A stretch of 64,000 bases of DNA from a bacterium (GCA_016719645.1 JADJYS010000014.1:69467-133466), one strand, 5' to 3'; positions 4,693-64,000 are shown, numbered from the stretch's first letter. Notes: generated by a model from the sequence alone, not told the origin. Numbers and translations are program-made.

Positions 4693-4748
4693 CACCCGCG
4701 GCGTCAACCAGCGGCCCGGCGCGGCCGGACCCGCACCAGGAGCCGACC

Positions 4749-6462: not shown

Positions 6463-7155
6463 CTAGTAGAGAGCCTTGATCGTGCCCCAGCTCATGGTCT
6501 CCGAGGAGACCGTGCCTTCCGGACCGACGACCAGCGTGCCGAAGGGAGCCAGGTCGGTGACCCAGACGTTGACGCCGGTGGTCTGGAAGCCCCACTGCAC
6601 GTGGCGGGCCGGATCGTTGATGGCGACCTGCGACAGGCTGAACGGCCCGGGCGAGGACAGGACCACCGTGGTCTGCACGAACGACGAGAAGTCGGGGGCG
6701 AAGTCCTTGATGAAGGCCAGGACCGTGTGGGCGCTGGTCAGGGTGTTGGACAGGACCTCGCCGGAGAACGTCACGGTCTGGCCCGCGAGGGCGCCATCGA
6801 CCTGGGCGTAGAGGTTGGCTTCCATGATCTTGTTGCCCGGCGCGCCCGGACCGCCGCAGTTCGGCGGCGAGACCCCGCCGACGCACTGGTACCAGTACTC
6901 GTTCGGATCGCCGATCGTGTTCGGCCCCAGGGTCAGGATGGAGCCGCTGTAGACGGCCGTCAGATCGCCGATTCCCCAGCCGCTGCCCCACAGGAAGTTG
7001 CCGCCCAGATCGAACACGTTCATGTACCCGAAGGTGATCGCCGCCGGATCGACCGTGACGTCGGTCTGCGCCTGGGCGACGGCCGCGCCGAACGACACGA
7101 GCGCGAGCACGATCAACAGTGCGCGAAGAGCAACGTTACCATTTGTCCTCATCAT
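6463..7155 (-). CDS. Secreted protein of unknown function ending in the WGxIKALY tail
   Basis: Signal peptide (ALRALLIVLALVSFGAAVAQAQ). Extreme C-terminus is ETMSWGTIKALY*. Confidence 0.75.
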   Translation of the reverse strand: MMRTNGNVALRALLIVLALVSFGAAVAQAQTDVTVDPAAITFGYMNVFDLGGNFLWGSGWGIGDLTAVYSGSILTLGPNTIGDPNEYWYQCVGGVSPPNCGGPGAPGNKIMEANLYAQVDGALAGQTVTFSGEVLSNTLTSAHTVLAFIKDFAPDFSSFVQTTVVLSSPGPFSLSQVAINDPARHVQWGFQTTGVNVWVTDLAPFGTLVVGPEGTVSSETMSWGTIKALY

Positions 7156-34757: not shown

Positions 34758-36278
34758 TTACCTCGCCAGGACCATCTTGCAGGCGGACCGCTCCGTGCCC
34801 GTCTTCACCTCGCAGAAGTAGACGCCGCTCGGCAGGGCGCGGCCTGCATCGTCACGGCCATCCCACCGCAACCTGATCACGCCGGCGGGACGGGACGCGT
34901 CGCTCAGCAGCACGCGCCGCAGCTTGCCGCCGGCATCGAAGACCCGCGCCGAAACCGGGGTGTCGGACGCCAGCGCGAATTCGATCTCGGTGGCGGGATT
35001 GAACGGGTTGGGGTTGGTCTTCACCGTGAGGCGCGCCGGGGGAACCGCCGCCGGCGCGCTGCCCGTGGGGTCGACGACGGGATCGAAGGCGTAGACCGCG
35101 CCCGCGTTGAGCGCGGTGTCGCTGTCCTTGCCGGCGCCGACCAGGACGCATCCGCCGTCGATGCCGACCGCGATGCCGAAATCGTCGTTCTGATTGCCGC
35201 CCGTGGCGGCCAGCCTCAGCAGCTCGGCGCCCGTCGCGACGTTGAAGACGTAGGACAACCCCGTCCGCGGCGTGCCGTAGCCCTGCTGGGTGGCGCCGAT
35301 CACGGCCAGATCGCCCGCGAGCGCGACGGAGCTGCCGAACCAGTCGGCGTAGTCCGCGTCCGCGGGGGTCAGCCTGTGCAGTTCCGCGCCGGTGGCGACG
35401 TCGAAGACGTAGGCCGCGCCGGCGTCTTCGTCCCCGCCGCCCCAGTAGGCGCCGACCAGCAGGGTGCGGCCGCAGATCGCCACCGCATTGCCGAAACGGT
35501 CGTAGGCGCCCCGGTCGCTGGCGGTCAGCCGCCAGAGCTCGACGCCGGTCCGCGGATCGAAGACGTAGACCGCGCCGCAGTCCGTCCTGCCGGGGGCGTC
35601 CCACATGGGAGCGCCGATCACCGCGAACGAGTCCGATACCGCCACCGCGTACCCGAACTGGTTCTGGCGGCCGAAGTCCGCGGCGACCAGCTTCCGCACC
35701 TGCACGCCGGTGTCCGGATCGAACAGGTACGCCGCGCCGCTGTCGTAGATCGAGACGCTGGCGTCGCAGTAGCGGGCGCCCACCAGGACGAACGAGTCCG
35801 AGACGGCCACGGCGCAGCCGAACTGGTCGTTCGCGGCGGCGTCGGCGGCCGTGAGCTTCCAGCGCTGGATCCCGTCGTCGGCCCCGAAGAGGTAGGCCGC
35901 GCCCGCATCGACGGCGGAGTGGTCGTCCCGCAGCGCGCCGATCACGGCACGCAGCCCGCGGAGCCCCACCGCGCAGCCGAAGTAATCGCCGCCGGCCGCG
36001 TCCGCGGCCCTCAGCTTGCGAGCCTGGACGTAACCGTCCAGGTCGAAGACGTAGGCGCAGCCGGAGTCGCCGCCGTCGTCGTCGTTCGCCTGGGCGCCGA
36101 TCAGGGCGAGTTCGCCCGACACGGCAAGGCTGATGCCGAAGCGGTCTCCGAGCGCCGCGTCGGCGGCCTGGATCCTGGTTTCGGTCGGCGTCGCCGACGC
36201 CGTGACGGCGCAGGCCAGACAGGCGAGGATGGTCGACGTCAAAAATCCGATGGGTGACTTCGCATCATCGTTCGACAT
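34758..36278 (-). CDS. Secreted FG-GAP-like repeat protein with C-terminal T9SS-like domain
   Basis: Repeated DxFGxAVAxxGxxxLIGA...YVFD units. C-terminus NPFNPATEIEFALASDTPVSARVFDAGGKLRRVL. Confidence 0.75.
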   Translation of the reverse strand: MSNDDAKSPIGFLTSTILACLACAVTASATPTETRIQAADAALGDRFGISLAVSGELALIGAQANDDDGGDSGCAYVFDLDGYVQARKLRAADAAGGDYFGCAVGLRGLRAVIGALRDDHSAVDAGAAYLFGADDGIQRWKLTAADAAANDQFGCAVAVSDSFVLVGARYCDASVSIYDSGAAYLFDPDTGVQVRKLVAADFGRQNQFGYAVAVSDSFAVIGAPMWDAPGRTDCGAVYVFDPRTGVELWRLTASDRGAYDRFGNAVAICGRTLLVGAYWGGGDEDAGAAYVFDVATGAELHRLTPADADYADWFGSSVALAGDLAVIGATQQGYGTPRTGLSYVFNVATGAELLRLAATGGNQNDDFGIAVGIDGGCVLVGAGKDSDTALNAGAVYAFDPVVDPTGSAPAAVPPARLTVKTNPNPFNPATEIEFALASDTPVSARVFDAGGKLRRVLLSDASRPAGVIRLRWDGRDDAGRALPSGVYFCEVKTGTERSACKMVLAR

Positions 36279-36464: not shown

Positions 36465-39400
36465 TCACCTGACGAGCATCATGTTGCGCTGCTGCGACTT
36501 CCCGTCCGCCTGCAGCCGGTACACGTACGCCCCGCTGGCGGCGTTCCCGCCCCGGTCGTCGCGCCCGTCCCAGACCACGGAGTGCGCGCCGGCCTCCCGG
36601 CTCCCCTCCACCAGGCTCCGCACCTGCCGCCCGCGCACGTCGTAGATGCGCAGGCTCACCGGACCGGCCTGCGGCAGCGAGAAGCGGATGACGGTGGACG
36701 GGTTGAACGGGTTGGGCGCGTTCTGCGCCAGCGTCGCGCCGCGGTCCGGCGTGCCGTCGTCCGCGCCGGTCGGGCTGCCGACCTGGATCGACAGGTTGTC
36801 CACGACCCAGCCCCAGCCGTTGACGGCGCCGTCGGCGTAGAACCGCCAGCGCAGCAGGATCGTGTCGCGCACGGCGAAGGCGTCGTGCAGGTCGAAGACG
36901 TGCGGCCGCAGCAGCGAGGAGCTGCCGGGCGTGCCGCTGTTCCAGGCGGTGACCCAGGCGGCGTCGCGCCGGCTGTCGTAGCCGTCGGCGATCGGCACCC
37001 AGGTGACGCCGTCCTTGCTGCCCTCCAGGATCACGTAGTCCCAGAAATCGCTGTCGCCGTAGACGCTGCCCGCCTCGCCCGGCTCGACCAGCACGACCTC
37101 GTCGAAGGAGACGTAGGCGTTCGACTGGGCGACGACGATCGGCACCGCGAGCATGGCCGTGTAGGCGGCGTTGTCGGGGTAGTCGTGCGGGAAGTGCAGG
37201 GCGCCGCCGCTGAAGCCGGCGTAGGCGCCGATGGTGAACCCGTCGCCGACGAAGTCGCCGGACGTGCTGAAGCTGTTCGTGTAGGCGGAGAGCGGCGCGG
37301 CGTACACGAACACCTCGAGCTCGCGCGTCACCGAGTCGTAGGCGACGCCGCCGCGGAAGGCGCGGGCGAACACGAGGCGCTGGCCGGCGCTCAGCACGGG
37401 CAGCTGCACCAGGGCGTCCTGCTGGAAGCCGCTGGCCGGCAGGGTGGCGCGCCGGACGCCGTCGACGAAGACCTGGGTGGAGTCGTAGGCGGACCGCAGG
37501 TTCAAATCGACGCTCAGCAGGCCGTCGGGGCCCTGGTAGAGGGCGTCGATGAGCGGCTTGAAGGTCTTGCCCGCGACCAGCGAGGGGAACTTCGCGCTCC
37601 AGATGCCGCGGCCGTGGCTGCCGATCACGACCTCGTCCTCGACCTCGGTCATCGACCAGATCGCCACGCTGGGCAGGCCGTTGTCGGCGAGCTCCCAGCT
37701 GGCGCCGCCGTCCAGCGACTCGACCAGGCCGATCTCGGTGCCGGCCCACAGGTGGTCGGGGTCGTCGGAGAACACCTGCAGGTCGTACACCGCCACGTCG
37801 GGGAAGCCGTTGGTGCTGGGGCTGCCGCCCGCGAAGCCCGTGATGTCGTTCCAGGTCTGTCCCAGGTCGTCCGTCCGGAGGATCTTGGGCCGGCCCGCGA
37901 AGCTGAACAGGACGTAGGCGACCGCGGGGTCGGCCGGGTGGGTGGCCAGGCCCGAGATGCCGCCCATGGTCGCGCCCGTGTAGTTCGGCACCACGCCGAA
38001 GGTGAGGCCGCCGTCGGTGGAGACGTGGATGCGCCCGCTGCCGTCCATGCGGGCGCCCGCCCAGACGATGTCGGGATCGGCGCGCGAGATCTTCACGGCG
38101 TGGAAGCTGCTGATCGAGCTCCAGGTCGCCGACGACACCGGGGTGAGCGACCAGCTGCCGCCGAAGTCCGTCGAGCGCCAGACGCCGCTGGCGCCGACGG
38201 CGAGCAGCAGGTCGGGCGCCTGGTTGGTCTTGGCGATCTTGGTGATGAAGGGGGCCAGGCCGGCGCCCGTGTCGCCCAGGCCGCCGGTGGCGCCGTTCCA
38301 GCTCTGGCCGCCGTCCAGCGAGCGCAGGAATCCGTTGTACTGGTAGCCGCCGATCATCTTCAGCGGGTCGTCGAAGTGCCACGAGGTCTCGTAGCCGTCG
38401 CCGCCGATGGCGAAGGTCCAGGGGGCGAGCCGGTCCGGGTCGGGTCCCGAGAACCAGGTGCCGTTGTCCTGCATGCCGCCGAAGTAGGCGCTGGCGCCGG
38501 GGCGCTTGTCGACGCCGTAGAACTGGGTGGTGGTCATGCCGTCGATGGGGGCGCTCCAGTTGGCGGCCTGGCTCGCGGCGACGCCGACGCCGCCGTCGTT
38601 GGTGTTCAGCAGGCGCCAGGCGCCGCCGCCGGTCGGCACCACCGCCAGGCCGTGGTGGTCCACGTGGACCGGCCCGACGCTCAGCTGGCTCGTGGTGCGG
38701 CTGGTGCCCGAGAGCGTGATCTGCCACAGGCGCACGCCGCCGACGTAGACGATGTTCACGTCGGTGGGGTGGCAGACGATGGTGTTGTCGTACCAGCCCT
38801 GCGCGCCCAGCCAGTTGGGCTCCGAGCCGCTCTCGAAGGTCTCGGACCAGGTCGCGCCGGCGTTGGTCGAGATCCACAGCTCGGAGTGGCTGGCGCCCTC
38901 GGCGGCGGCGTAGAGGCGGCTCGTGTTGACCGGCGAGACGGCCAGCTCGAAGCGGCCGCTCAGGTCGGCGATGCCGGTGTTGACGTAGGCCCAGCTGTTG
39001 CCGGCGTTGGTCGACTTCAGGATGCCGCCCTCGTCGACGGTCGCGTACAGCACGTTGAAGTTGCCGGGCGTGGCCACGATCTGCTGGATCTTCTTGACGC
39101 GGCCGAAGGTGCCGATGTCGGTGATCGCGTGCACCTCGGCCCAGTTCGCCCCGCCGTCGGTCGACTTGAAGATGCTCGAGCGCTGCAGCACCGAATCCTT
39201 GTAGCGCCCGACGGTCGTCACGGCCAGCACGACGTTGGCGTTCGCGGGGTCGACCACGATCCGGGCCACGTTGTTGAAGGCCGGGTCGTCGACGGTCGCC
39301 GGCAGGTGCGCCCAGGTCTGGCCGCGGTCGGTCGACTTCAGGATGCCGTTGCCGTTGATGGTGTCGACGTTGAAGAAGCTCTCGCCGGTGCCGGCGTACA

Positions 39401-39989
39401 GGACGTCGTGGTTGCTCGCGGCCATGGCCAGCGCCTGGACCGACAGCACCGGGAAGTCCGACGTCAGGTCGCTCCAGGTGGCGCCGCCGTCGGCGGTCTT
39501 CCAGACGCCGCCGCCCGCCGTCCCGATGTACCAGGTCAGGGCGGCCGGGTCGTCGGGATCGACCACGATCGCGCGGGCGCGGCCGGCGACGTTGCCGGGG
39601 CCGCGGTTCTCCCAGGCCAGCGTCGCGGCGGGCGAGCGCTTCGCCGCGCGCGCCGTGGCCAGCTCGCGCACCAGGTAGCCGGCCTCGTACTCGGGCTCCT
39701 TGCGGTCGGCGGGGATGCGCATCTCGTTCATCAGCCGCGCGAACTCCTCGGGCGCCTCGAAGGCCGGCAGGCCCGCGAGCCGGCGCGCGATGCGCTCGAT
39801 CTTGTGCCCGGCCTTGAAGCGGTCGGACGAGCCGGGCGCGGCGTGGTCGCGACGCAGTTCCAGCTTCGCGAGCTCGCGCGCGAAGGGATCGTCCTGCTCG
39901 CGGATGCCCGAGCCGGCCAGGAAGGACGCGGTGCCGATCGCGAGCACGCCCGCGACGGTCAACAGGGCAGGGATCCGGGAGAAACGCAT
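36465..39989 (-). CDS. Secreted BNR/Asp-box repeat (sortilin/VPS10-like) protein with C-terminal T9SS-like domain
   Basis: Signal peptide MRFSRIPALLTVAGVLAIG. Multiple S-x-D-G-G-x-T-W repeats. C-terminus NPFNPSTVIRFSLPQAGPVSLRIYDVRGRQVRSL. Start set by the ORF-track frame (may be off by 1). Confidence 0.8.
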   Translation of the reverse strand: MRFSRIPALLTVAGVLAIGTASFLAGSGIREQDDPFARELAKLELRRDHAAPGSSDRFKAGHKIERIARRLAGLPAFEAPEEFARLMNEMRIPADRKEPEYEAGYLVRELATARAAKRSPAATLAWENRGPGNVAGRARAIVVDPDDPAALTWYIGTAGGGVWKTADGGATWSDLTSDFPVLSVQALAMAASNHDVLYAGTGESFFNVDTINGNGILKSTDRGQTWAHLPATVDDPAFNNVARIVVDPANANVVLAVTTVGRYKDSVLQRSSIFKSTDGGANWAEVHAITDIGTFGRVKKIQQIVATPGNFNVLYATVDEGGILKSTNAGNSWAYVNTGIADLSGRFELAVSPVNTSRLYAAAEGASHSELWISTNAGATWSETFESGSEPNWLGAQGWYDNTIVCHPTDVNIVYVGGVRLWQITLSGTSRTTSQLSVGPVHVDHHGLAVVPTGGGAWRLLNTNDGGVGVAASQAANWSAPIDGMTTTQFYGVDKRPGASAYFGGMQDNGTWFSGPDPDRLAPWTFAIGGDGYETSWHFDDPLKMIGGYQYNGFLRSLDGGQSWNGATGGLGDTGAGLAPFITKIAKTNQAPDLLLAVGASGVWRSTDFGGSWSLTPVSSATWSSISSFHAVKISRADPDIVWAGARMDGSGRIHVSTDGGLTFGVVPNYTGATMGGISGLATHPADPAVAYVLFSFAGRPKILRTDDLGQTWNDITGFAGGSPSTNGFPDVAVYDLQVFSDDPDHLWAGTEIGLVESLDGGASWELADNGLPSVAIWSMTEVEDEVVIGSHGRGIWSAKFPSLVAGKTFKPLIDALYQGPDGLLSVDLNLRSAYDSTQVFVDGVRRATLPASGFQQDALVQLPVLSAGQRLVFARAFRGGVAYDSVTRELEVFVYAAPLSAYTNSFSTSGDFVGDGFTIGAYAGFSGGALHFPHDYPDNAAYTAMLAVPIVVAQSNAYVSFDEVVLVEPGEAGSVYGDSDFWDYVILEGSKDGVTWVPIADGYDSRRDAAWVTAWNSGTPGSSSLLRPHVFDLHDAFAVRDTILLRWRFYADGAVNGWGWVVDNLSIQVGSPTGADDGTPDRGATLAQNAPNPFNPSTVIRFSLPQAGPVSLRIYDVRGRQVRSLVEGSREAGAHSVVWDGRDDRGGNAASGAYVYRLQADGKSQQRNMMLVR

Positions 39990-40068
39990 GGTACGACCTC
40001 GAAGGGGTAGGGCGTTGGGGAAAGGTCCGGCCGGCGGGTGCCGACAGGATATCAAAAATACGTCTCCG

Positions 40069-54279: not shown

Positions 54280-55365
54280 TCATTTCGCGAGCGTCACCCG
54301 GACCACGCCGGCGCCCGAAGCCGTCGACAGCCGCGCCAGGTAGACCCCCGAGGCCGCGCTCCGGCCCGCGGCGTCGCGGCCGTCCCAGCTCGCCTCGTGC
54401 GCCCCGGCGGCCAGGTTGCCGTCGATCAGCGTCCGGACCAGGCGGCCGGTGACGTCGTAGACCGCGAGCCTGGCGGAGCCGGCGGCCGGCAGGGCGAAGC
54501 GGATCGTGGTCGTCGGATTGAAGGGGTTGGGATGGACGTCCGTGAAGAAGGCGGTTGCGGCCGCCGCGGGGGCGTCCACCGCGTCTTCCCCCGCCGCCGC
54601 GACCAGCGCGGCGACGAGCAGCGGGCCGGCGACCAGGTTGGCGGCGGCGTTGGGGTGCGAGTCGGGGCTGCTGCAGCTCGTGCTCTTGCAGTAGTTCGCA
54701 CGCAGGGTGTTGCGGTCCTCCGCGTCGCGCGGCGAGGCCAGGACGTCGAAGAGATCGAAGAAGCGCAGGTTCGGATGCCCGCCCAGGAAGGCGGTCGAGC
54801 CGAGCCAGTCGGCGAAGGCCCGCCCCCGGTCGGCCTCGGTCGACGTCGAGAGGCAGGGGTGCATCGGCGGCGAGGACATCAGCAGGAAGACGTGGTCCGG
54901 GTGCTGGTCGAGCACGTCACGGATCTCGAGGTACCAGGCCTTGTACTGCGCCAGCATCGCGTCGGTCTCGATGAGCGACGCCCCGTAGCAGGACTTGAAG
55001 GCGATGACCTGGTGATTGGCGAGGATGGAGTCGCGCGCCGAGTTGGCCGTGGTCCAGAGCTGGTGGAGGCCGACCACGTACGTGTCGTCGTCGGGGATGT
55101 CGTAGTAGCGGTCCGCCAAGTCGCCGTCGGGGTCCATCAGGCCGATGGCGTTGTAGTCGTGGTCCCACAGCACGAGCCGGGTCCCGCGCTGGACGTTGTG
55201 GTCGTCGAGGAGCTGCCGCACGTTCCCTTCCTCCAGGATGTTGCGGCCCACGGAATGGTGCAGCACGAACAGGTTGGTCAGCGACAGGGCCGGACTCGGC
55301 GCGGCGGCGGTCACCAGCCACACCGTCAGAAGCGCGAGGCACGCGCTGTAGGTTCGATTCGACAT
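54280..55365 (-). CDS. Secreted protein of unknown function with C-terminal T9SS-like domain
   Basis: Signal peptide MSNRTYSACLALLTVWLVTAAAPSPA. C-terminus HPNPFNPTTTIRFALPAAGSARLAVYDVTGRLVRTL...WDGRDAAG. Confidence 0.75.
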   Translation of the reverse strand: MSNRTYSACLALLTVWLVTAAAPSPALSLTNLFVLHHSVGRNILEEGNVRQLLDDHNVQRGTRLVLWDHDYNAIGLMDPDGDLADRYYDIPDDDTYVVGLHQLWTTANSARDSILANHQVIAFKSCYGASLIETDAMLAQYKAWYLEIRDVLDQHPDHVFLLMSSPPMHPCLSTSTEADRGRAFADWLGSTAFLGGHPNLRFFDLFDVLASPRDAEDRNTLRANYCKSTSCSSPDSHPNAAANLVAGPLLVAALVAAAGEDAVDAPAAAATAFFTDVHPNPFNPTTTIRFALPAAGSARLAVYDVTGRLVRTLIDGNLAAGAHEASWDGRDAAGRSAASGVYLARLSTASGAGVVRVTLAK

Positions 55366-55864
55366 GATCTCTCCCATCCACATTGAACGACGGACGGCGA
55401 ACCGGAAGCCCGGAACCATCCCGCCTCCGCCTGCGGCGCGGCCGCAACGACGGAGTTCGCCATCGGGATGGCCACCATCCGCCCCTGCCACTTCCGTGCC
55501 GCGGTCATGTCATTGAATAATATGACGATACGATTTCGGCGGCCGGTGCAGCTCCATCATAAAAGACGCGGCGCCGATTCCTGGATCGACGCGCGTCGCC
55601 TCGCCGCGCGCGATGCGCCCGCGATCCCGATCCTGCAGAGAGGCGTGAACGGCGGCGACCCGGCGCTCCCGGCGGCTTCACGCCCGCTCGCCTCGCGGCC
55701 TCGATCATGTCCGGCCGGTTCGGTCTTTGCACGATGGAACGAACGGGACGACAACCTCATCCTGATGCACACCCCACCTTTATGATGGGACCTCGAGACA
55801 CCGCACGGCGGCCGCGTTCACGGTGGTTCTCCAGAATCTCCTGAATCGGATCATGCAACACGCA

Positions 55865-55919: not shown

Positions 55920-58205
55920 CTAGTTCGTGTTGCCGCTGGCGCCGGCGGGGCCGCTCGGACCATTGGGAGCGCCGCCCGCGCCGCCGCTGCCGCCCATCCC
56001 GATCATGAAGGTCGTGCCGCTCATCGCCGGTGCGCCGCCCTGGCTCCAGATGCCGTAGCTCGGGCCGCCGTGGCCGCCAGCGCCGCCGCCGCCCTGACCG
56101 CCCTGGCCGCCATGGCCGCCGGCGCCGCCCCGGCCGATCTCGCCGAGGCAGTTCGCGCCGCCGGTCCCGCCGCCGCCGCCCGCGCCGCCGCTGCCGCCCG
56201 GGGCGCCGGGTCCGCCGCTGCCGCCGGCGCCGGTGATGATCAGGCAGTCGTTCAGGACCGGCGAAGCATCGATCGCCAACAGCCCGAAGGAAGCGCCGCC
56301 GCTCAGGCCGCCGCTGCCGCCCATGCCGCCGTAGCCGCCGCCGCCACCGCCGCCGCCGCTGTTGCCCACCCCGTCGTCGCAGAAGGTGCACTCCTGGCCA
56401 CCGCCGCCGCCGCCACCGCCGCCGCCGTAGCCGCCGACGCCGTTGCCGCCGGCGCCGCCGACGTTCGGCAGCCAAGCGTCGCCGACGATCTGGCCGGCCG
56501 CGGGGGCGACCGTCCCGGCGGCGCCGATCGAGCCGTTGGCGCCGTTCTGTCCGTTGCCGCCCGAGCTGCCGGGATCGCCCGTGAAGCCGCCGCTGCCGCC
56601 GGAACCGCCGGGAGCGCCGGCACCGCTGGCGCCGGCCCCGGCGCTGGAGCCGTTGCCGAGCTGGTTGCCGGCGAAACCGCCGGTGCCGCCGACGAAGGCG
56701 CCGGCGCCGCCGGCGCCGCCCGGACAGGCGTAGACCCCGTCGCAGCTCCCCGGCAGGCCGGTCGAGCCGTTGCCGCCGGCGGCGCCGGTTGAGCCGGGCG
56801 TGCCGCCCAGGGCCGCCCCGCCGTTGCCGCCGCGCAGCTTGCAGTTCTCGAAGACGAGCGCGCTGCTGCAGTCGGTCGCCGTGACCGCGATCGAGACCCC
56901 GGACGTGGTCGCAGCGTTGGCGGCGACCACCTCGAAGCCCCGGATGGTCGTCGGGCTGGTGATGGCCTGGGCGCGCAGCGGGCGCGTGGAGCCGGTGACG
57001 ACCGAGTAGACGCCGGGCTGCTCGGCCCAGGTGACCGCGGCGAGGCCGCCGGTCAGGTTGATGCCGTCGATCAGGAACACGACCTCGTTGTAGGTGCCCT
57101 CGGTGACCAGGACCTGGTCGAGCATGAGGGACTGGGCGAGGGCGAGGCCGTGGCTGATGGTCTTGACCGGGGACGTCAGGCCGCCGCTGTCGCCGTCGTC
57201 GCCGGTCGGCGTGACGAAGATGGCCAGGGGAACCGGCGGCACGACCGTCACCTGCACCACCGCCAGCCCGATCCCGCCGTCGTCGTCGGTCACGCGCAGC
57301 TTGGCCAGGTACTGGCCCTGCGACGGGTAGACGTGCAGCGCGTTGGCGTTGGCGGCGCTGCTCCAGTCGAAGACGCCGTCGTCCTCGAAGTCCCACTCGT
57401 AGAGGACGACCGTGCCGTCGGCGTCGGTCGCGACCGCGCCGAACGACGTCGCGTCCCCCTCGGCCGACGTCGAGGCGGTCAGCGCGCTCGCGACGGGCGG
57501 GATATTGGCGTTCAGGCGCAGGAACATCGCCGGCAGGGCCACGACGTCGCCCGCGGCAACCAGGGATCCCGCGGCGGTGTCGTCGAGGTAGCCCGCGTGC
57601 ATGGCGCGGGCCGGCCACGCGCCCACCGGCACGCCGGTCAGGCTGTAGTCGCCGGCCGCGTCGGTGACCGCCACGTACGACGTCCCCTCCAGGAAGACGA
57701 CGGTGCCGGTGTGATCGACCGCGTTCTCGAGCGTGGCGTTGCCCAGGAAGGTGCCGGTCGGCACGAGCTGGATGTCGACGAAGGTCGTCTCGGCGTTGGC
57801 CGCGACGCCGGGCGGGATCTCCAGGCTGCGGCTGTCGCCGGCGTGGTCGCGCAGCGACGAGGTCAGCAGGTAGGTGCCGGCGTCCAGGCCGGCGAAGGCG
57901 AAGCGGCCCGCGCGGTCGCTGACCGCGCTGCGCACGTCGCCGGACTTGTCGGCCGTCGCGGACGCGCCCGACAGCGCGCGCCCGACCGTCGCCGACAGGC
58001 CGCCCTCGAGGCGCTCCAGCGCCAGCACCGCGTCGGGCGCGGGCCGGCCGCCGGTGTCCAGCACGGTGCCGCTCAGGACCGCGCCCTCGCGGACCTCGAT
58101 GCCGGACAGGGGTTCGGTCGGCGGCGGCTGGTCGGAGCAGCCCCACAGGACGCCGATCAGCACGGCGGCCAGCAACAGGGCGATGAACGGGCGACGGGAG
58201 GTCAT
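55920..58205 (-). CDS. Large lipoprotein with CarbopepD_reg-like domains, a PKD-like domain, a beta-helix region and a ~290-aa glycine-rich low-complexity C-terminus
   Basis: LIGVLWGCSD lipobox. YEWDFEDDGVFD matches the PKD motif. The C-terminal third is GGxGG repeats ending GASGNTN. Confidence 0.8.
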   Translation of the reverse strand: MTSRRPFIALLLAAVLIGVLWGCSDQPPPTEPLSGIEVREGAVLSGTVLDTGGRPAPDAVLALERLEGGLSATVGRALSGASATADKSGDVRSAVSDRAGRFAFAGLDAGTYLLTSSLRDHAGDSRSLEIPPGVAANAETTFVDIQLVPTGTFLGNATLENAVDHTGTVVFLEGTSYVAVTDAAGDYSLTGVPVGAWPARAMHAGYLDDTAAGSLVAAGDVVALPAMFLRLNANIPPVASALTASTSAEGDATSFGAVATDADGTVVLYEWDFEDDGVFDWSSAANANALHVYPSQGQYLAKLRVTDDDGGIGLAVVQVTVVPPVPLAIFVTPTGDDGDSGGLTSPVKTISHGLALAQSLMLDQVLVTEGTYNEVVFLIDGINLTGGLAAVTWAEQPGVYSVVTGSTRPLRAQAITSPTTIRGFEVVAANAATTSGVSIAVTATDCSSALVFENCKLRGGNGGAALGGTPGSTGAAGGNGSTGLPGSCDGVYACPGGAGGAGAFVGGTGGFAGNQLGNGSSAGAGASGAGAPGGSGGSGGFTGDPGSSGGNGQNGANGSIGAAGTVAPAAGQIVGDAWLPNVGGAGGNGVGGYGGGGGGGGGGQECTFCDDGVGNSGGGGGGGGYGGMGGSGGLSGGASFGLLAIDASPVLNDCLIITGAGGSGGPGAPGGSGGAGGGGGTGGANCLGEIGRGGAGGHGGQGGQGGGGAGGHGGPSYGIWSQGGAPAMSGTTFMIGMGGSGGAGGAPNGPSGPAGASGNTN

Positions 58206-58224
58206 GGCAGGTTCCTTTCGCAAG

Positions 58225-58836
58225 TCAGCGGGTCAGGACCAGGGCGCGGGTGGAGGTCCGACCCTCGCTGCGGGCCTGGACGAGGTAGAGACCGGAAGGG
58301 GCGGGACGGCCGTCGGGGCCGCTCGCGTCCCACTCGTATTCGTGATCGCCGGCCGCGAGCGTCGCGGCGCTCCAGGTGCGCAGCAGCCGGCCGCCGGCGT
58401 CGTAGACGCTCAGCTGCACCGGCGCTTCCCGCCTCACGACGAGCCGCAGCTTGGTCGCGCCCGCGCTCGGGTTGGGCCAGGGCAGGGCCAGGCGCATCGC
58501 CGGCAGGTCCGCGGCCAGGGGCACGTCGGTGACGTCGTCGGCGACCTCGACGCCGTTGCGGTAGGCGACGACGTAGTCGTCGACCCGCACCTCCAGCGTG
58601 TAGACGCCGGCGGCGAGGCCGTCGAGGCAGTAGCGGCCGGTAGCGTCGGTGGCCGCATGGTCGCCGGTGTAGGCTCCGGCCGCGGTGCGCAGGAAGATGC
58701 CCGCCTGCGCGACGGGACCGCCGGTCGTGACGTCGGTGACGAGGCCGCAGATCGACGCGGCCGACGAGGGACCGGCGGCCAGCAGGGCGAGCAGAAGCGG
58801 CGGGATCGACCGGCGCGAGAAGCGGGTCGGCGGCAT
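58225..58836 (-). CDS. Secreted CarbopepD_reg-like domain protein with a degenerate T9SS-like C-terminal domain
   Basis: Signal peptide IPPLLLALLAAGPSSAAS. ...GRYCLDGLAAGVYTLEV. C-terminus WPNPSAGATKLRLVVRREAPVQLSVYDAGGRLLRTW. Confidence 0.65.
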   Translation of the reverse strand: MPPTRFSRRSIPPLLLALLAAGPSSAASICGLVTDVTTGGPVAQAGIFLRTAAGAYTGDHAATDATGRYCLDGLAAGVYTLEVRVDDYVVAYRNGVEVADDVTDVPLAADLPAMRLALPWPNPSAGATKLRLVVRREAPVQLSVYDAGGRLLRTWSAATLAAGDHEYEWDASGPDGRPAPSGLYLVQARSEGRTSTRALVLTR

Positions 58837-59126
58837 GGCGATTTCCCCCGGTGGCAGGACCGACTCCATCCCCGGCGTTCCGTCGACAGGCGCGTTCGAG
58901 CCGCCGAGGCCGCCGGAGACATGCGGGCGAACGGGCAGTCTACCACCACTCGGGAACAATAGGACTAATTTAATCCTTATTACAGGATAAGGTGCTGATC
59001 GAATTCCGGATCTCGAAGACGCTCGTTCAGTTGCGCGAGCCGCCCTGTTCGGCGTTAGGCGTGATGATCATCGATCATTCGCTCATCTTTGATAGCATCG
59101 AGATATCCGCACATCCGGCCCTGTGC

Positions 59127-59885
59127 CTACCTGTAGAGCACCTTGAGTTGACCCCAGTTCGCCGCTTCCTCGTGGACGTCCGTGACGGGCACGGCCCGCG
59201 ACCGGCCGTCGATCAGGTTGAACTCGAACCGCAGCTTGGCCTGCGGCGCCGTCGTCTCGAAGATGAAGTTGTCGCCGATGAACATGTTGTAGTGGACGCC
59301 CAGATTGCAGTAGTCCCAGGTGCCGACGACACGGAACTTGTACTCGTAGACTCCCGGGGCGCCGATCGTCACGTCGGTGAACCAGCCCGCCTCCCCCGTC
59401 TCGACCGGAACGCCGGTCAGCCAGTCGCCCAGTTCGGGCGCGCCGCCGATCAGCTCGAACTCGAATCCCGGTGTGAGGCTGATGTGGTCGCAGGCGACGG
59501 CGTTGGTCGCCGGCTGCCAGCCGCCGCCCAGCGTGTTGGTGTCGAGCCGGAAGTGGATCACGTCGCCGGGGTATTCCAGGTAGAGGACGGCGTTGGCCAG
59601 CGGGTGCATCCCATTGAACGGGTAGCTCTCGGACCAGTCGGCCGTGGCGATCTTCCAGCCGTGGCTGCCGGGAGCCTGGTCCGCGGTCACGAAGGCGCCG
59701 TGCACGCCGTCGTCCGCCGCGCCGTCGCCGTGCTGGCCGTCGTCGAACAACTCGTTGCCGGCATCGCAGCTCCAGATCCCGCCCGTGCCGGCGTAGAAGG
59801 TGCCGCGGGCATAGAAGGGACCGGCGAGCGCCGGGGCCGCGGCCGCGAACAGCAACAGGATCCAGGGAAGTGCCCTTGTCTTCAC
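59127..59885 (-). CDS. Secreted protein with CBM-like beta-sandwich region ending in the WGxLKVLYR tail
   Basis: GTG start 9 nt after GGAGG. Signal peptide ...AAAPALA-GP. C-terminus EEAANWGQLKVLYR*. Confidence 0.7.
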   Translation of the reverse strand: MKTRALPWILLLFAAAAPALAGPFYARGTFYAGTGGIWSCDAGNELFDDGQHGDGAADDGVHGAFVTADQAPGSHGWKIATADWSESYPFNGMHPLANAVLYLEYPGDVIHFRLDTNTLGGGWQPATNAVACDHISLTPGFEFELIGGAPELGDWLTGVPVETGEAGWFTDVTIGAPGVYEYKFRVVGTWDYCNLGVHYNMFIGDNFIFETTAPQAKLRFEFNLIDGRSRAVPVTDVHEEAANWGQLKVLYR

Positions 59886-59905
59886 GGCGGTCAACCTCCC
59901 GGTGC

Positions 59906-60835
59906 TCAGATTCCCGGCGTCGTCGACAGATAGAGCGCCTTGATGGCGCCCCAGTCGATGCTCTCGTCCATCGGCGCGGACGACCGCGCCGCCGAGAGCC
60001 CGACGACCAGTTCCTGGTGGCCGATCAGGTAGAAGTGGCAGCGGGTGCCGCCGCCGGGCTGCGCTTCTGCCATCGCCTTCACGTAGAACCGCTGCAGCGA
60101 GAACACCGTGATGGTGCTCGGATCTTCGGTGTCCAGATCGAAGACGACCCGCACCTCGAAGAAGGCCTGCGTGGCGTAGGGAAAGTAGGGGTCGTTCCCG
60201 GGAGCGACATCCCAATCGGAGAAGCGCACGAGCCGCTCGAACTCGACGTCGCGCACGCCGACCATCGGCTCGCCGCCGGGGCCGTGCCCCGGCTCGCCGG
60301 CGAACATGTTGGCCGTGGACTGGAGGTCCTCGGCGCGCGTGTAAACGCCGCTCGGAGGCGCCGCGGAGCTCCCCTCGGCGAAGACGAAGCGGAAGTCCGG
60401 GTGCAGGGCGGCGCCGTACTCGCCGAGGTCCATCTCGTCGTAGGCGTTGCGGAAGTTGGTCATGAGCTGCTGCGGGGTGTCGGGGAACGGGAAGCGGTCG
60501 ACGTAGGTCCCGGCGAACTCGACCTCCTCGCCGGCGGCCAGCGCCTGGGTCGCCGTCGCGGGTTCGGGAGCCGACCAGCCGGCCACGTCCCCCCAGGCGA
60601 GCGTGTAGTCGCCCGGGGCGAGATCCGCGAACGTCGCGTCGCCGGATCCCGACTGCGCGTAACCGTCCGGTCCCGTCACCTGCCACGGCGCCGCGAGGTC
60701 GTCGGGCGTGGCGTCGATCGCCAGCGTGCCGGTCAGCGGCACGACGGGCTGATGTTCATCGCCACAGCCGACGGCGACGGCGACGGCGAACGCCACCACG
60801 AGCATGCCGCGCGCGCACCGGAAGGGCCTGTGCAT
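59906..60835 (-). CDS. Lipoprotein, paralogue of 63084..63740, ending in the WGAIKALY tail
   Basis: AVAVAVGCGDE lipobox. Shared FPDTPQQLM..FRNAY...LHPDFRFVFA...STITV..LQRFYV motifs. C-terminus ESIDWGAIKALYLSTTPGI*. Start from the ORF-track frame. Confidence 0.7.
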   Translation of the reverse strand: MHRPFRCARGMLVVAFAVAVAVGCGDEHQPVVPLTGTLAIDATPDDLAAPWQVTGPDGYAQSGSGDATFADLAPGDYTLAWGDVAGWSAPEPATATQALAAGEEVEFAGTYVDRFPFPDTPQQLMTNFRNAYDEMDLGEYGAALHPDFRFVFAEGSSAAPPSGVYTRAEDLQSTANMFAGEPGHGPGGEPMVGVRDVEFERLVRFSDWDVAPGNDPYFPYATQAFFEVRVVFDLDTEDPSTITVFSLQRFYVKAMAEAQPGGGTRCHFYLIGHQELVVGLSAARSSAPMDESIDWGAIKALYLSTTPGI

Positions 60836-61087
60836 GGTTCCCCCCTCACGTCGATCATGATGGGCGATGAGTCCATGTCTCAATGACGATCATACACGAA
60901 TGAGAAGCAACCTGCACGACCGGCCCCAGGGCTGTTAATAACCGCCGCACCGCGCGGACGGCGCTTCGTCCGTCGTGCGGCGACTGGCAACGCACCGCCC
61001 GATCGGGTAGAATCGCCGTCTCCCGCGCGGTTCCCCGACGCCGTCGGCGGCGGGACCGATCACGACGCGGGACGATCGGAGGGTCCC

Positions 61088-62338
61088 GTGACCGCTTCCC
61101 TGACGCGTCCGCTCCTCACCGTCGCCCCCTGCCTGCTGTGCCTGCTGCTCGCCTGCTCCGACGGCGCGCCCGTCGTCGAGGACGAGGACACGGACACGAC
61201 CCCGCCCGACGCGATCACCGACCTGATCGCCCTGAACCCGACCTCGCAGTCGGCCACGCTGTATTGGACGGCCCCCGCCGACCGCCGCGACGACGGCGCG
61301 GACGGTTCGGTCGTCGCCTACGACCTGCGGGTGGCGGACGCCACGATCACCGAAGACAACTTCGACCAGGCGCGGGCGGTGGCAGGCGTCCCGGCGCCGG
61401 CGACGCCGCAGCTGATCCAGAGCCTGATCGTGACCGGGCTGACCCCGGGCGCCGCCAGCCACTTCTCGCTGCGGTCGCGCGACGCCGAGGGGAACTGGAG
61501 CGCCGTCTCCGACTGCCCCCACGTCGACTGCACGGCGCCCGTGGCCGTGGAATTCCCCGACCCCGGCCTGGAGCAGGCGATCCGCGCGCACGTCCACCGG
61601 CCGGCCGGCGGGCTGACCTCGTCGGACGTGGACACCATCCTGCACTTCACGGCCGCGGGAGCCGGGATCGCCGACCTGTCGGGGATGCAGGCCTGCCTGT
61701 CGCTGCGGACCGCCCGCCTGAGCGACAACGACATCGCCGGGCTCGAACCGCTGCGGCACCTGATCGACCTGCGCGGACTCTACCTGGACACGAACGCGGT
61801 GAGCGACCTGGAACCGCTCGCCGGCCTGCTGGACCTCCAGCAGCTCCACCTCACCTGGAACCCAGTCACCGACCTCTCGCCGCTGGTCATGCTGCAGCAG
61901 ATCCGGCAGCTGACCCTCTCGGGCACCGTCATCGCCGACTACACGCCGCTGACCTTCCTGGGGTACCTCAACGACCTCTACCTCGGCGACATGGAGCTGC
62001 AGAACATCGACTTCCTGGTGAACCTGCGCCAGCTGCGCCTGCTCAACCTGGAGATCAACCACATCCAGTCGCTGGAGGCGCTCCGGTACCACGACATGAT
62101 CGAGTCGCTCAACCTGATGCAGAACGGCATCGTGGATCTCGCACCGCTGGCCGGATTGACGAACCTGCGGAACCTGAACCTGGCCGGCAACCTCGTGGCC
62201 GACCTGCAGCCGCTGCTCGACAACGCGGGCCTGGGAGCGGGCGACGCCGTGGACCTCAGGAACAACCCGCTCTCGGCGCAGGCGCTGGCGGTGCAGGTGC
62301 CCGCGCTGGAGGGGCGCGGGGTGGTCGTGCAGCATTGA
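61088..62338 (+). CDS. Lipoprotein with fibronectin-III-like domain and leucine-rich repeats (internalin-like LRR)
   Basis: GTG start after GGAGGG. LLLACSDG lipobox. Repeated LxxLxxLxLxxNxIxDLxPL units. Confidence 0.8.
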   Translation: MTASLTRPLLTVAPCLLCLLLACSDGAPVVEDEDTDTTPPDAITDLIALNPTSQSATLYWTAPADRRDDGADGSVVAYDLRVADATITEDNFDQARAVAGVPAPATPQLIQSLIVTGLTPGAASHFSLRSRDAEGNWSAVSDCPHVDCTAPVAVEFPDPGLEQAIRAHVHRPAGGLTSSDVDTILHFTAAGAGIADLSGMQACLSLRTARLSDNDIAGLEPLRHLIDLRGLYLDTNAVSDLEPLAGLLDLQQLHLTWNPVTDLSPLVMLQQIRQLTLSGTVIADYTPLTFLGYLNDLYLGDMELQNIDFLVNLRQLRLLNLEINHIQSLEALRYHDMIESLNLMQNGIVDLAPLAGLTNLRNLNLAGNLVADLQPLLDNAGLGAGDAVDLRNNPLSAQALAVQVPALEGRGVVVQH

Positions 62339-62399
62339 TCGCGGCTCGGGACGACCGACGGCGCGCGGCACCTCGTCCGTATGCGGATGACCAGAACAT

Positions 62400-62946
62400 T
62401 CACCGATAGAGCGCCTTGACCTCGCCCCAGCAGAGCTCCTCCACGGGTTCGGGATAGTACAGCCACCCCATCCCTCCGCTCGCGGAAATCCAGCCCGTCC
62501 CGTCCGCGGCGTCGACCAGGACGACGGCATCGTCGGGATGGGGCAGGACTTCGACGTCGTAGACGAGGCCCTGACCGAAGACGATGAAATCGCCCTCCCC
62601 CAGCAGGACGATCCCGGTGTTGTCCGCGACGAGCACCGGCTCGTAGTCGACCTGGACGCCGGTCTCCGGGGGAGCCGGAGACCGTGGACGGCGGGAGCGA
62701 GAGGCTGTCGGCGTGCACGAACACGTGCGGGTCCGTCTCCAGCCGGAACCGCGCGGCGCCCACCTGTTCGAGATTCCTGGCGACGAGATAGAAGCGGACG
62801 GCGCTGAATGAGCTGGAGTAGTGCCCCCAGACGATCGTGCCGGCCTCGTCGAAGTACACCCCGAGGCTCGGATGGCCGCGCGGCTGGGCGCTGCCGGACG
62901 CAGCCGCCAGCATGGTCAAGACGGCGACGACGAGACTCCTCCTCAC
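62400..62946 (-). pseudogene. Small secreted protein with WGEVKALYR tail, interrupted by a frameshift in a G5/C5 homopolymer
   Basis: N-terminal part (GTG 62946, signal peptide MRRSLVVAVLTMLAAASGSAQP) and C-terminal part (...CWGEVKALYR*) are in different frames. Removing one base of the GGGGG run at ~62668..62672 restores a single ~181-aa ORF. Confidence 0.6.
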
Positions 62947-63083
62947 GGGAACACCTCCGTTGTCCGGTGGATCCGTACGCGTCCGTCTATTCGGAACGCA
63001 GCGCCGCACGGGCGCAGGTCATTGTCGGCATGGTCGGCGCCTTTCGATGGAGTACCGCGATGGTGGTCCAGGAATGGATCGTA

Positions 63084-63740
63084 TCATCTGTCCGGCGGCG
63101 AGTAGATCGCCTTGACCGATCCCCAGCTCATCGCCTCGCTCGACAGGAGGAGCGCGGCCGGATCCTCGGGCCCGTAATCCCGTTGTCCGATCAGGCTGCA
63201 ACGCAGGCGGGCCGGGCCGTCCCGCCGGACGACGGGTTCCGAAACGACATAGAAGTCCTGCCGGGAATCGATCGTGATCGTGCTGTGCGCGGGCGTGTCC
63301 AGCAGCAGGACGATCTGCACGTCGTAGACGGCCCGGCGGGAACCCGGGAACCGGGGGTCGTCCAGCGGCACGTCCAGCCAGTCGGTCCGGCGTTCGAAGC
63401 GATAGATGTCGATGCCGAGAACCCCGGGTTTCGGCCAGCCCTCGAAATCCCATCCCTGCTCCCCGTCGAACATGCGCCCGGAGGTGGCGAGCTCCTGCTC
63501 GCGTGTGAAGGCGCCGCCGGGGGGCGCGACGGGGCTGTCCGCCGCGAACACGAAGGTGAAATCCGCGTGCAGCGCGTCGCGGTACCCGTCGATGTCCCTC
63601 TCGCCGTAGGCTTGGCGGAAATCCGCCATGAGCTGGTCCGGCGTCTCGGGGAACGGGATCGGATCCACTTCCGCTGGTCCGTCGCCGCCGCAGCCGGCCA
63701 GGACGGCGACGAGCAGGACGGCATGCTTCCAGGCGGGCAT
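63084..63740 (-). CDS. Lipoprotein, paralogue of 59906..60835, ending in the WGSVKAIY tail
   Basis: GGGAGGG SD. LLVAVLAGCGG lipobox. FPETPDQLMADFRQAY...LHADFTFVFA...STITI..RQDFYV. C-terminus EAMSWGSVKAIYSPPDR*. Confidence 0.75.
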   Translation of the reverse strand: MPAWKHAVLLVAVLAGCGGDGPAEVDPIPFPETPDQLMADFRQAYGERDIDGYRDALHADFTFVFAADSPVAPPGGAFTREQELATSGRMFDGEQGWDFEGWPKPGVLGIDIYRFERRTDWLDVPLDDPRFPGSRRAVYDVQIVLLLDTPAHSTITIDSRQDFYVVSEPVVRRDGPARLRCSLIGQRDYGPEDPAALLLSSEAMSWGSVKAIYSPPDR

Positions 63741-63757
63741 GGTCGACCCTCCCCCGG

Positions 63758-64000
63758 TCAGCGCTTCACGAGCTCCACGCGCCGGTTCCTGGCGCGCCCT
63801 TCTTCCGTGTCGTTGGCGGCGACGGGCGCCAGGGGCCCCACGCCGTGCCCCGCCAGCCGCGCCGCGGCGATGCCGTGCCGGGAGACGAGCGCCTGGACCA
63901 CGGCCTCCGCCCTGGCCCGCGACAGCGCCAGGTTGGCGTCCAGCTGGCCCACCATGTCCGTGTGGCCCACGACCAGGAGCGTCAGGCCCGAGTCCTGACC
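63758..64000 (-). CDS. OmpA-family protein, C-terminal peptidoglycan-binding domain (partial; 5' end beyond the window)
   Basis: ...GQLDANLALSRARAEAV...NRRVELVKR*. The ORF continues open to the window edge. Confidence 0.7.
   Translation of the reverse strand, partial: GQDSGLTLLVVGHTDMVGQLDANLALSRARAEAVVQALVSRHGIAAARLAGHGVGPLAPVAANDTEEGRARNRRVELVKR

Follow-up and report, generated by a model that had tools for sequence, protein, structure and literature searches.

We analyzed a 64,000-nucleotide stretch of DNA from a bacterium (GCA_016719645.1 JADJYS010000014.1:69467-133466), referred to below as the window, and found that five of its predicted exported proteins carry the same short tail at or close to the C terminus. 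This tail, or tag, is portable. It ends at least 60 unrelated protein families, most of which have signal-peptide-like N termini, and it is apparently undescribed and covered by no Pfam or NCBIfam model. Four of the five tail genes lie in an array at 58.2 to 64 kb, which is best read as a conserved island of genes for envelope or surface proteins; the bacterium is uncultured and has type IX secretion as well. Tentatively, at somewhat less than an even chance, we consider the tag to be a new short C-terminal sorting or tethering signal on exported proteins.

The array had been described from the sequence alone as a compact cluster of secreted proteins and lipoproteins unified by a common tail. 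This original prediction proved correct in outline: an open reading frame (ORF) listing of the window contained all six genes where they had been placed, and the cluster of exported or lipid-anchored envelope proteins is conserved in related genomes. The window was translated in six frames and scanned with the pattern W-[GS]-x-[ILVM]-K-x-[LIVM]-[YF]. Five matches were obtained in the 64 kb, all 0 to 7 residues ahead of a stop codon, and none in 300 residue shuffles. All five fit the narrower form W-G-x-[IVL]-K-[AV]-[LI]-Y, and they are carried by four of the six array products and by the product of a gene at 6463-7155. The tail-bearing genes and their tails are as follows:

63084..63740, minus strand: lipoprotein X1, 218 amino acids (aa), lipobox LAGC, predicted NTF2-like core, linker, tail WGSVKAIY followed by SPPDR
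63102..63125, minus strand: tail of X1, WGSVKAIY, pattern match, 5 residues to the stop codon
62400..62946, minus strand: small secreted tail gene, 547 nucleotides (nt), with a 1-nt frameshift at the run of five C residues at 62668-62672
62406..62429, minus strand: tail of the small protein, WGEVKALY, pattern match
59906..60835, minus strand: lipoprotein X2, 309 aa, lipobox AVGC, predicted Ig-like and NTF2-like domains, disordered linker, tail WGAIKALY followed by LSTTPGI
59930..59953, minus strand: tail of X2, WGAIKALY, pattern match, predicted helix
59127..59885, minus strand: secreted protein resembling carbohydrate-binding modules (CBM-like), 252 aa, two predicted beta-sandwich modules, choice-of-anchor X motif, tail WGQLKVLYR
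59133..59156, minus strand: tail of the CBM-like protein, WGQLKVLY, pattern match, predicted helix
6463..7155, minus strand: fifth tail gene, far from the cluster, secreted product of 230 aa ending in WGTIKALY and then the stop codon

No Pfam or NCBIfam model matched the 6463-7155 product. The codons of the tail vary synonymously among the copies (GGC/GGA/GGT, TAT/TAC, CTC/TTG/CTG), so selection acts on the tail peptide and not on a DNA repeat; a DNA-level repeat is thereby ruled out. The full tag comprises about 15 residues, P-[VT]-E-x-x-[ST]-W-G-x-[IVL]-K-[AS]-L-[YF]-R. It is not strictly terminal in X1 and X2, in which 5 to 7 residues follow the motif and the terminal R is replaced. In the AlphaFold2 (AF2) models of two unrelated families, represented by X2 and the CBM-like protein, the tail follows a linker of lower confidence.

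In public metagenome contigs, we looked for coding DNA in which W-G-x-[IVL]-K-A-L-[YF]-R stands directly before a stop codon, and at least 120 loci with the tail in this position were recovered. The matches listed (L020-L139) contain at least 139 tail-bearing ORFs, 3 of which belong to the family of X1 and X2. After removal of the tail, these 139 ORFs and the five window proteins formed 64 BLAST clusters, including 47 singletons. One protein of a 13-member cluster matched POMP-repeat/parallel beta-helix proteins, the best family match of an NHL-repeat protein was ScyF, a PEP-CTERM protein, and many small tail proteins had no family match at all. Among the matches listed, a crude test assigned a signal-peptide-like N terminus to 86 of 101 full-length tail ORFs, and the GC content of the contigs ranged from 0.30 to 0.74, a span which implies that many lineages carry the tail. 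W and K are invariant and G is near-invariant across unrelated tail families, and [YF]-R ends most tails. Positions outside the search pattern were also conserved among these matches: of 118, 112 have T or S at -1, 62 have P at -6, and 48 have E at -4, and V, T, or A is conserved at -5. Many tail proteins of L020-L139 have Cys pairs or C-P-G just upstream of the tag (e.g., GCPPCDTPVDKESWGTIKAMFR and CPGSTPTQNHTWGSVKALYR), a pattern that suggests a disulfide-stabilized element ahead of the P-[VT]-E-x-x-[ST]-W-G core.

No NCBIfam model matched the tail of 10 tail proteins even at E values up to 10, and no Pfam model covers the tail. A literature search on the tail motif, novel C-terminal sorting signals, type IX secretion (T9SS), and atypical or type C C-terminal domains (CTDs) retrieved no description of the tail. 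Searching a protein database with a tail-only profile, built from a padded alignment of 40 aa, recruited 22 candidates, gave 7 tiny ORFs as its result, and was uninformative. The neighborhoods of 54 tail loci of at least 3 kb among the matches listed were compared. Type IX type-A cargo was encoded in 14 of them and an X-family protein in 2; type IX cargo and a possible sensor-kinase-like family were the only non-tail families that recurred.

X1 and X2 are clear paralogues, as had been predicted, with 41% identity over 191 aa (pairwise E value of 4e-40). X1 is annotated as 'hypothetical protein IPM94_11325', and X2 is 100% identical to 'hypothetical protein IPM94_11310'. The AF2 model of X2, built from an 11-sequence alignment, has a mean predicted local distance difference test (pLDDT) score of 77. 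It shows an Ig-like beta-sandwich at residues 36-110, which X1 lacks, an alpha+beta cone at residues 121-275 (block-mean pLDDT mostly 75-94), and, beyond the disordered linker, a short helix that covers the tail (residues 295-303, with a block pLDDT of about 79). In a Foldseek search of the PDB, the cone matched NTF2-like proteins, limonene epoxide hydrolase, and ketosteroid isomerase at E values of about 2e-5 and weaker with a probability of 1.0. Target template modeling (TM) scores of 0.5-0.66 against NTF2-like structures place the modeled cone in the NTF2-like superfamily. No Pfam or NCBIfam model reached its cutoff on X1 or X2; the core scored 14.0 bits with SnoaL_3 and 14.2 bits with DUF4440, far below the respective cutoffs of 22 and 25.2. 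Thus, the X core appears to share the alpha+beta cone fold of the NTF2-like/SnoaL-like superfamily, but the X proteins differ from these relatives in being lipoproteins, in bearing the tail, in occurring in tandem arrays, and in the Ig-like N-terminal domain.

An exhaustive X profile search returned 2,685 representatives at an E value of 0.001 or less, many of them via the repeated Ig-like module alone. Nearly all homologues with an NTF2-like core end in E-x-x-S-W-G-x-V-K-A-L-[YF]-R. X genes form tandem arrays of at least 4 to 5 copies in the related contigs L010 (1-3058) and L011 (8581-11848) and of at least 3 to 4 copies in L013 (48-3780). Fused two-domain proteins (e.g., P0060, P0070, and P0088) keep an internal tail after each NTF2-like core, and the homologues labeled Latescibacteria or Latescibacterota stop just before the tail. 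A Cys follows the hydrophobic region of the signal peptide in all 56 X-family sequences examined. Judged against the lipobox pattern [LVI][ASTVI][GAS]C, X1 (LAGC), X2 (AVGC), and the leucine-rich repeat (LRR) protein of the array (LLAC) are predicted lipoproteins. In 38 of 48 X sequences scored (window N termini and P0020-P0157), at least two acidic residues stand just after the lipobox Cys, as in C-S/G-D-D-D-P. Acidic residues at this position resemble the lipoprotein surface-export signal of Bacteroidota, and surface exposure of the X family is plausible. Taken together, an X protein is a predicted lipoprotein with a modeled NTF2-like core, sometimes preceded by an Ig-like domain.

The CBM-like gene starts 20 nt past the X2 stop codon and has a Shine-Dalgarno sequence of its own, GGGAGG, 9 nt ahead of its GTG start codon, which agrees with the original prediction. 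Residues 45-78 of its product belong to the choice-of-anchor X family (NF041940, 36.6 bits versus a cutoff of 25). The NCBIfam name 'choice-of-anchor' is used for domains that sit before differing C-terminal anchors. In the AF2 model (60-sequence alignment, mean pLDDT of 90), two beta-sandwich modules are followed by a linker and then by a helix over the tail at residues 244-251. The top Foldseek match was X25-2, a module of Sca5 from the amylosome of Ruminococcus bromii (7rpy, 2.5e-5), followed by SusE (4fch and 4fem), AmyP-SBD, and CBM20, so that the best matches were all starch-binding modules. TM-scores were 0.24-0.28 for the whole model, and target scores were 0.4-0.5 per module. PF22058 is precomputed on nine homologues, and the window protein itself has no Pfam match. 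At the level of fold, the protein may be alpha-glucan-binding-like. Its predicted tandem beta-sandwich modules are common to SusE/SusF and CBM20/X25; unlike SusE/SusF-type proteins, it is not a lipoprotein, and the whole-model TM-score is low. The tail or a close variant ends 62 of 63 homologues, and the remaining one, P0201, ends in TWGALKRGLD, without the aromatic-Arg end.

The behavior of the tail in these two families bears on the reading that it does nothing in common wherever it occurs, being either the structural end-piece of one divergent superfamily or a translated DNA repeat. Within the X family, the tail is part of the domain architecture and is internal in fused proteins, and in the CBM-like family it is almost always retained, both of which an end-piece would explain. 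The 64 tail-trimmed clusters from the listed matches, however, differ in fold, with NTF2-like cones, tandem beta-sandwiches, a beta-helix, and an NHL propeller among them, and a conserved DNA element is excluded by the codon variation described above. We regard this reading as highly improbable.

The original prediction had also proposed that each X lipoprotein and the tailed protein that follows it form a two-component surface system, a binding protein plus an anchor. In its explicit form, X would be the membrane anchor, and its NTF2-like cone would bind the tail of a neighbor or of another X, in a manner similar to cohesin and dockerin. In the window, the small tail protein indeed follows X1, and the CBM-like tail protein follows X2. 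The tandem X arrays in L010, L011, and L013 are followed by a small tail-variant protein (ending in FGEIKALYRR, FSQVKLLFGR, and FGQVKALYGR, respectively), in L003, L004, and L009 the gene immediately before X encodes another tail protein, and NTF2-like cones are ligand-binding folds. X homologues without the tail exist, and these have no tailed neighbors, which counts for docking and, at the same time, against a general pairing of X with a tailed partner.

Gene order in related genomes does not fit such a pairing. L004 and L009 are the closest relatives with the same island, and L140 and L141 derive from more distant genomes. In L004, the order is OmpA, another tail protein, a long X, an opposite-strand lipoprotein, a small protein, the LRR protein, the CBM-like protein, T9SS cargo, and a PKD lipoprotein; L009 matches this order over the genes it retains. 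Neither has an X gene ahead of the CBM-like gene. The adjacency of X2 and the CBM-like gene is therefore lineage specific, X2 being an insertion or duplication in the lineage of the window. In L140 and L141, the tail-bearing CBM-like gene stands alone among housekeeping genes. Moreover, X1, X2, and nearly all other X members bear the tail themselves, so that a clustering of tail genes explains the association between X and tail proteins as well as partner binding does. Given the scarcity of the X domain at the listed tail loci and among the listed tail ORFs (2 of 54 and 3 of 139), X cannot be the locally encoded partner of most tail proteins. Of the two parts of the refutation set out with the original prediction, only one was thus borne out: no X homologue of known function was found, but X is not generally linked to tailed partners. 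We conclude that docking between X and the tail is quite unlikely as the explanation of the tag.

Three points support, by analogy, a sorting or tethering signal. First, the tag occupies the position of PEP-CTERM or type IX signals on related passengers, namely, a choice-of-anchor domain and a ScyF-like NHL protein. Second, the tail is modular in the X family. Third, tag genes are scattered, like the cargo of general sorting systems. The presence of type IX cargo near tail loci assigns the tag to bacteria in which type IX secretion is also in use and does not prove that the tag uses it. In the mechanism we propose, tagged proteins would first be exported by Sec, with lipidation in the case of X, and the tag would then act as their common signal for sorting or retention. 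One factor, shared by all and encoded elsewhere than next door, would recognize the tag, and the recognized proteins would be routed to or tethered at the outer membrane or cell surface, by a route parallel to that of the type IX CTDs on other proteins of the same organism. The island would accordingly group surface proteins with the same label, rather than obligate pairs of X and a partner, its members being a glycan-binding protein, a lipoprotein resembling LRR adhesins, lipoproteins with NTF2-like cores, and a wall anchor of the OmpA type.

Several observations weigh against a sorting signal. The tag has only about 10 to 15 residues and lacks a segment that would span the membrane, which sets it apart from all established signals of the sortase or exosortase type. 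The residues that follow the motif in X1 and X2, together with the internal copies in fused X proteins, indicate that a free C terminus is not strictly needed, and such nonterminal tails fit a binding or structural motif as well as they fit a sorting signal. In the CBM-like family, the single deviant homologue carries a degraded copy of the tail, which gives no sign of modularity within that family. Finally, no receptor or enzyme recurs among the neighbors of the 54 listed tail loci. A stronger version, in which the tail marks an unrecognized sorting or surface-tethering pathway with dedicated machinery, widespread in uncultured environmental bacteria with type IX secretion, and is the shortest known C-terminal label of a diderm envelope that lacks a transmembrane (TM) segment, is possible but on balance doubtful.

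The predicted helix over the tail raises the alternative that the tag is a short, in-plane amphipathic helix that reversibly binds exported proteins to a membrane leaflet. Comparable C-terminal membrane-targeting helices are found in MinD and PBP5. AF2 placed a helix over the tail in two unrelated families (block-mean pLDDT of about 58-84), and the composition of the tag is suitable, with aromatic (W and Y/F) and basic (K and R) residues, S or T at the helix N-cap, and an upstream Pro. Calculated for 64 distinct tails, however, the hydrophobic moment was 0.46, a value reached by 29% of permutations, and beta periodicity fits the tails at least as well. The invariant W and K and the near-invariant G exceed what generic amphipathicity needs, and the X proteins are already lipid anchored by prediction. 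A membrane-binding helix is therefore an unlikely explanation.

The invariant K and the [YF]-R at the end of most tails also invite a comparison with covalent attachment or processing motifs; Braun's lipoprotein, for example, ends in YRK. The Lys of the tag might be cross-linked to peptidoglycan or to a surface glycolipid, or the tag might be a type IX signal in miniature. At the head of the island stands an OmpA-type wall-binding gene, type IX cargo is often encoded at the listed tail loci (14 of 54), and the type IX CTDs in the window likewise end in hydrophobic-x-K/R. Against this, no type IX CTD model matched any tail protein, although the same models match neighboring cargo, and the tail is far shorter than the folded type IX domain of 70 to 100 aa. 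In addition, no transpeptidase or peptidase is recurrent near the tail genes of the 54 listed loci, and in X1 and X2 the terminal R is replaced and residues are added after the motif. We judge covalent attachment or processing to be improbable, to a similar degree as the amphipathic helix.

The remaining genes of the array and its surroundings do not carry the tail and comprise the following:

63758..64000, minus strand: 3' end of a gene of the peptidoglycan-binding OmpA family, last 79 codons, cut by the window edge, without tail
61088..62338, plus strand: LRR lipoprotein with lipobox LLAC, a weak region resembling fibronectin type III (FN3), and an internalin-like LRR domain, without tail
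58225..58959, minus strand: secreted type IX cargo with CarboxypepD_reg and a type-A C-terminal domain, absent from the original prediction
55920..58223, minus strand: lipoprotein of 767 aa, in which CarboxypepD_reg and PKD domains are followed by an extremely Gly-rich C-terminal half

The GC content of the window is about 71%. The OmpA fragment is 82% identical over 78 aa to the C terminus of its 301-aa orthologue in L004 (3142-4047), which matches PF00691 OmpA at 2e-18 and thereby assigns the fragment to the OmpA family. The LRR lipoprotein had been called an FN3-plus-LRR protein. The LRR part of this assignment is secure (PF12799 LRR_4 at 9.6e-21 in four stretches), whereas the FN3 part is subthreshold (PF00041 at 19 bits versus a cutoff of 25, E value of 0.0016). 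Part of the model NF041611 (exoglucanase CbhB) also matched the FN3-like region, with an E value of 1.3e-6 and far under the cutoff, and internalin-type NCBIfam models matched the protein at 4e-30, likewise far under their cutoffs. Its orthologues in L004 and L009 are 90 to 91% identical.

The product of 58225..58959 matched PF13620 at 1.1e-11, PF13860 at 2.1e-12, and TIGR04183 with 34.4 bits versus a cutoff of 23, and the gene is syntenic in L001, L003, and L004. The product of 55920..58223 matched PKD_4 at 2.2e-14 and has an orthologue in L001 that is 90% identical; it contains long GGxGG and GxxGxxG runs, and its gene is always next after the small T9SS-cargo gene. Type IX type-A-like C termini were also noted at 124-1095, 15513-18053, 34758-36278, 36465-40055, 54280-55491, and 58225-58959, with the ends MTLVK, GVLVR, KMVLAR, NMMLVR, VTLAK, and LVLTR, respectively. 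The last two were checked with hidden Markov models (HMMs), and both pass TIGR04183, the product of 54280-55491 with 29.1 bits versus the cutoff of 23.

The sole terminator-like site on the minus strand of this run lies at 55571-55592 (minus strand), after the 55920..58223 gene. On this basis, the genes for X2, the CBM-like protein, the T9SS cargo, and the PKD lipoprotein look like one putative transcription unit. Two sigma-70-like promoter matches, one per strand, are located at 60854-61013, between the divergent X2 and LRR genes, which lie 250 bp apart. Both match at the level of the consensus only, and no others occur in the 55.5- to 64-kb region (2 found versus 0.3 expected).

The small secreted protein was located correctly and has the predicted tail, but its gene is not a single intact ORF. 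The signal-peptide half and the tail half lie in different frames, which meet at the C run. With one base removed, the gene is collinear with an intact gene in L003 (9781-10362, annotated as 181 aa), to which the two halves are 71% and 77% identical; the reconstructed product has 181 aa, ends in WGEVKALYR, and has no Pfam or NCBIfam match. The contigs of a related metagenome-assembled genome (MAG) are named tig000..., which is typical of long-read assemblers. Given these names and the position of the frameshift in a homopolymer, we hold an assembly error to be as likely as a real pseudogene. A gap in the locus tags from IPM94_11315 to IPM94_11325 suggests that the depositors saw some feature there, perhaps a pseudogene.

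In the source MAG, the array genes are annotated as 'hypothetical protein' (locus tags IPM94_11305 to IPM94_11325). A second contig of the same MAG (18.5 kb) carries near-identical copies of an X1 fragment and of the LRR protein (IPM94_12895 and IPM94_12900). These genes may be truly duplicated, or the bin may be redundant at the level of strains. Related MAGs bear conflicting depositor labels (Gemmatimonas sp., Fibrobacter sp., Candidatus Eisenbacteria, and 'bacterium'). Just upstream of the part of L003 with the tail protein and X, genes annotated as prepilin-type (N_methyl, a weak match) and DUF4900 are present at 2859-4698, and prepilin-like N termini, judged by eye, occur just upstream of the OmpA-like gene in L004 (686-3332). 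The corresponding stretch of the source genome falls outside the window.

Among known C-terminal signals, the tag finds its counterparts solely as a portable C-terminal label. An outer membrane beta-barrel signal is characterized by a terminal aromatic residue, usually Phe, that closes an alternating hydrophobic strand. The tag does not have this form, since most tails end in Arg and X1 and X2 have 5 to 7 further residues; the predicted folds of X2 and the CBM-like protein are soluble domains and not barrels. Cohesin-dockerin systems, as in the cellulosome and the amylosome of Ruminococcus bromii, likewise label diverse secreted modules with a portable element, and the tagged CBM-like protein structurally resembles, in its model, the X25 module of the amylosome scaffoldin Sca5. 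A dockerin, however, is a Ca-binding domain of about 70 aa, and no cohesin-like receptor was found for the tag; X, the sole local candidate, is absent from most of the listed tail loci.

PEP-CTERM/exosortase, LPXTG, GlyGly-CTERM, MYXO-CTERM, and PGF-CTERM signals resemble the tag in being short signatures on diverse exported proteins. The likeness to PEP-CTERM extends to the same passengers (choice-of-anchor X and ScyF-like NHL proteins), an upstream P-x-E, and a basic end residue. PEP-CTERM-type signals, however, possess a TM helix and a basic cluster. The tag has neither, as only 9 to 10 residues, including a Lys, follow its P-x-E and leave no membrane-spanning segment, and no sortase-like gene is nearby. 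No CTERM model matched the tail at E values up to 10, and a single PGF_CTERM match covered an N-terminal signal peptide.

Similarly to the tag, type IX CTDs (TIGR04183/PF18962; types A, B, and C) are C-terminal on signal-peptide proteins, occur on many unrelated cargo families encoded by scattered genes, and often end in a basic residue. The organism of the window itself has a CTD of this kind, encoded in the putative operon that also holds tail genes (58225-58959). Such a CTD is a folded beta-sandwich of about 70 to 100 aa, whereas the tag consists of about 10 to 15 residues that follow a linker and are predicted to be helical. No type-A CTD match was obtained for X1, X2, the CBM-like protein, both halves of the small protein, or the 6463 protein, and no T9SS model matched any tail protein; the type C CTD has an HMM profile of its own.

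The C-terminal labels LPXTG, PEP-CTERM, and the type IX domains have each opened the way to a machine for secretion or anchoring and have made whole surface proteomes predictable from sequence. If the tag is a sorting or tethering signal, it would flag a large unannotated surface proteome in uncultured wastewater, soil, and sediment bacteria. The NTF2-like, X25/CBM20-like, LRR, and OmpA domains of the island are ordinary folds, and no curated model reaches its cutoff on the X family, for which up to 2,685 representatives were matched, many by way of the Ig-like repeat only. The point of interest is thus the tag itself rather than a module of X and a partner. Present on dozens of unrelated exported families, from glycan binders and beta-helix proteins resembling adhesins to NHL propellers and lipoproteins with NTF2-like cores, the tag would also offer a handle for finding its machinery by phylogenetic profiling.

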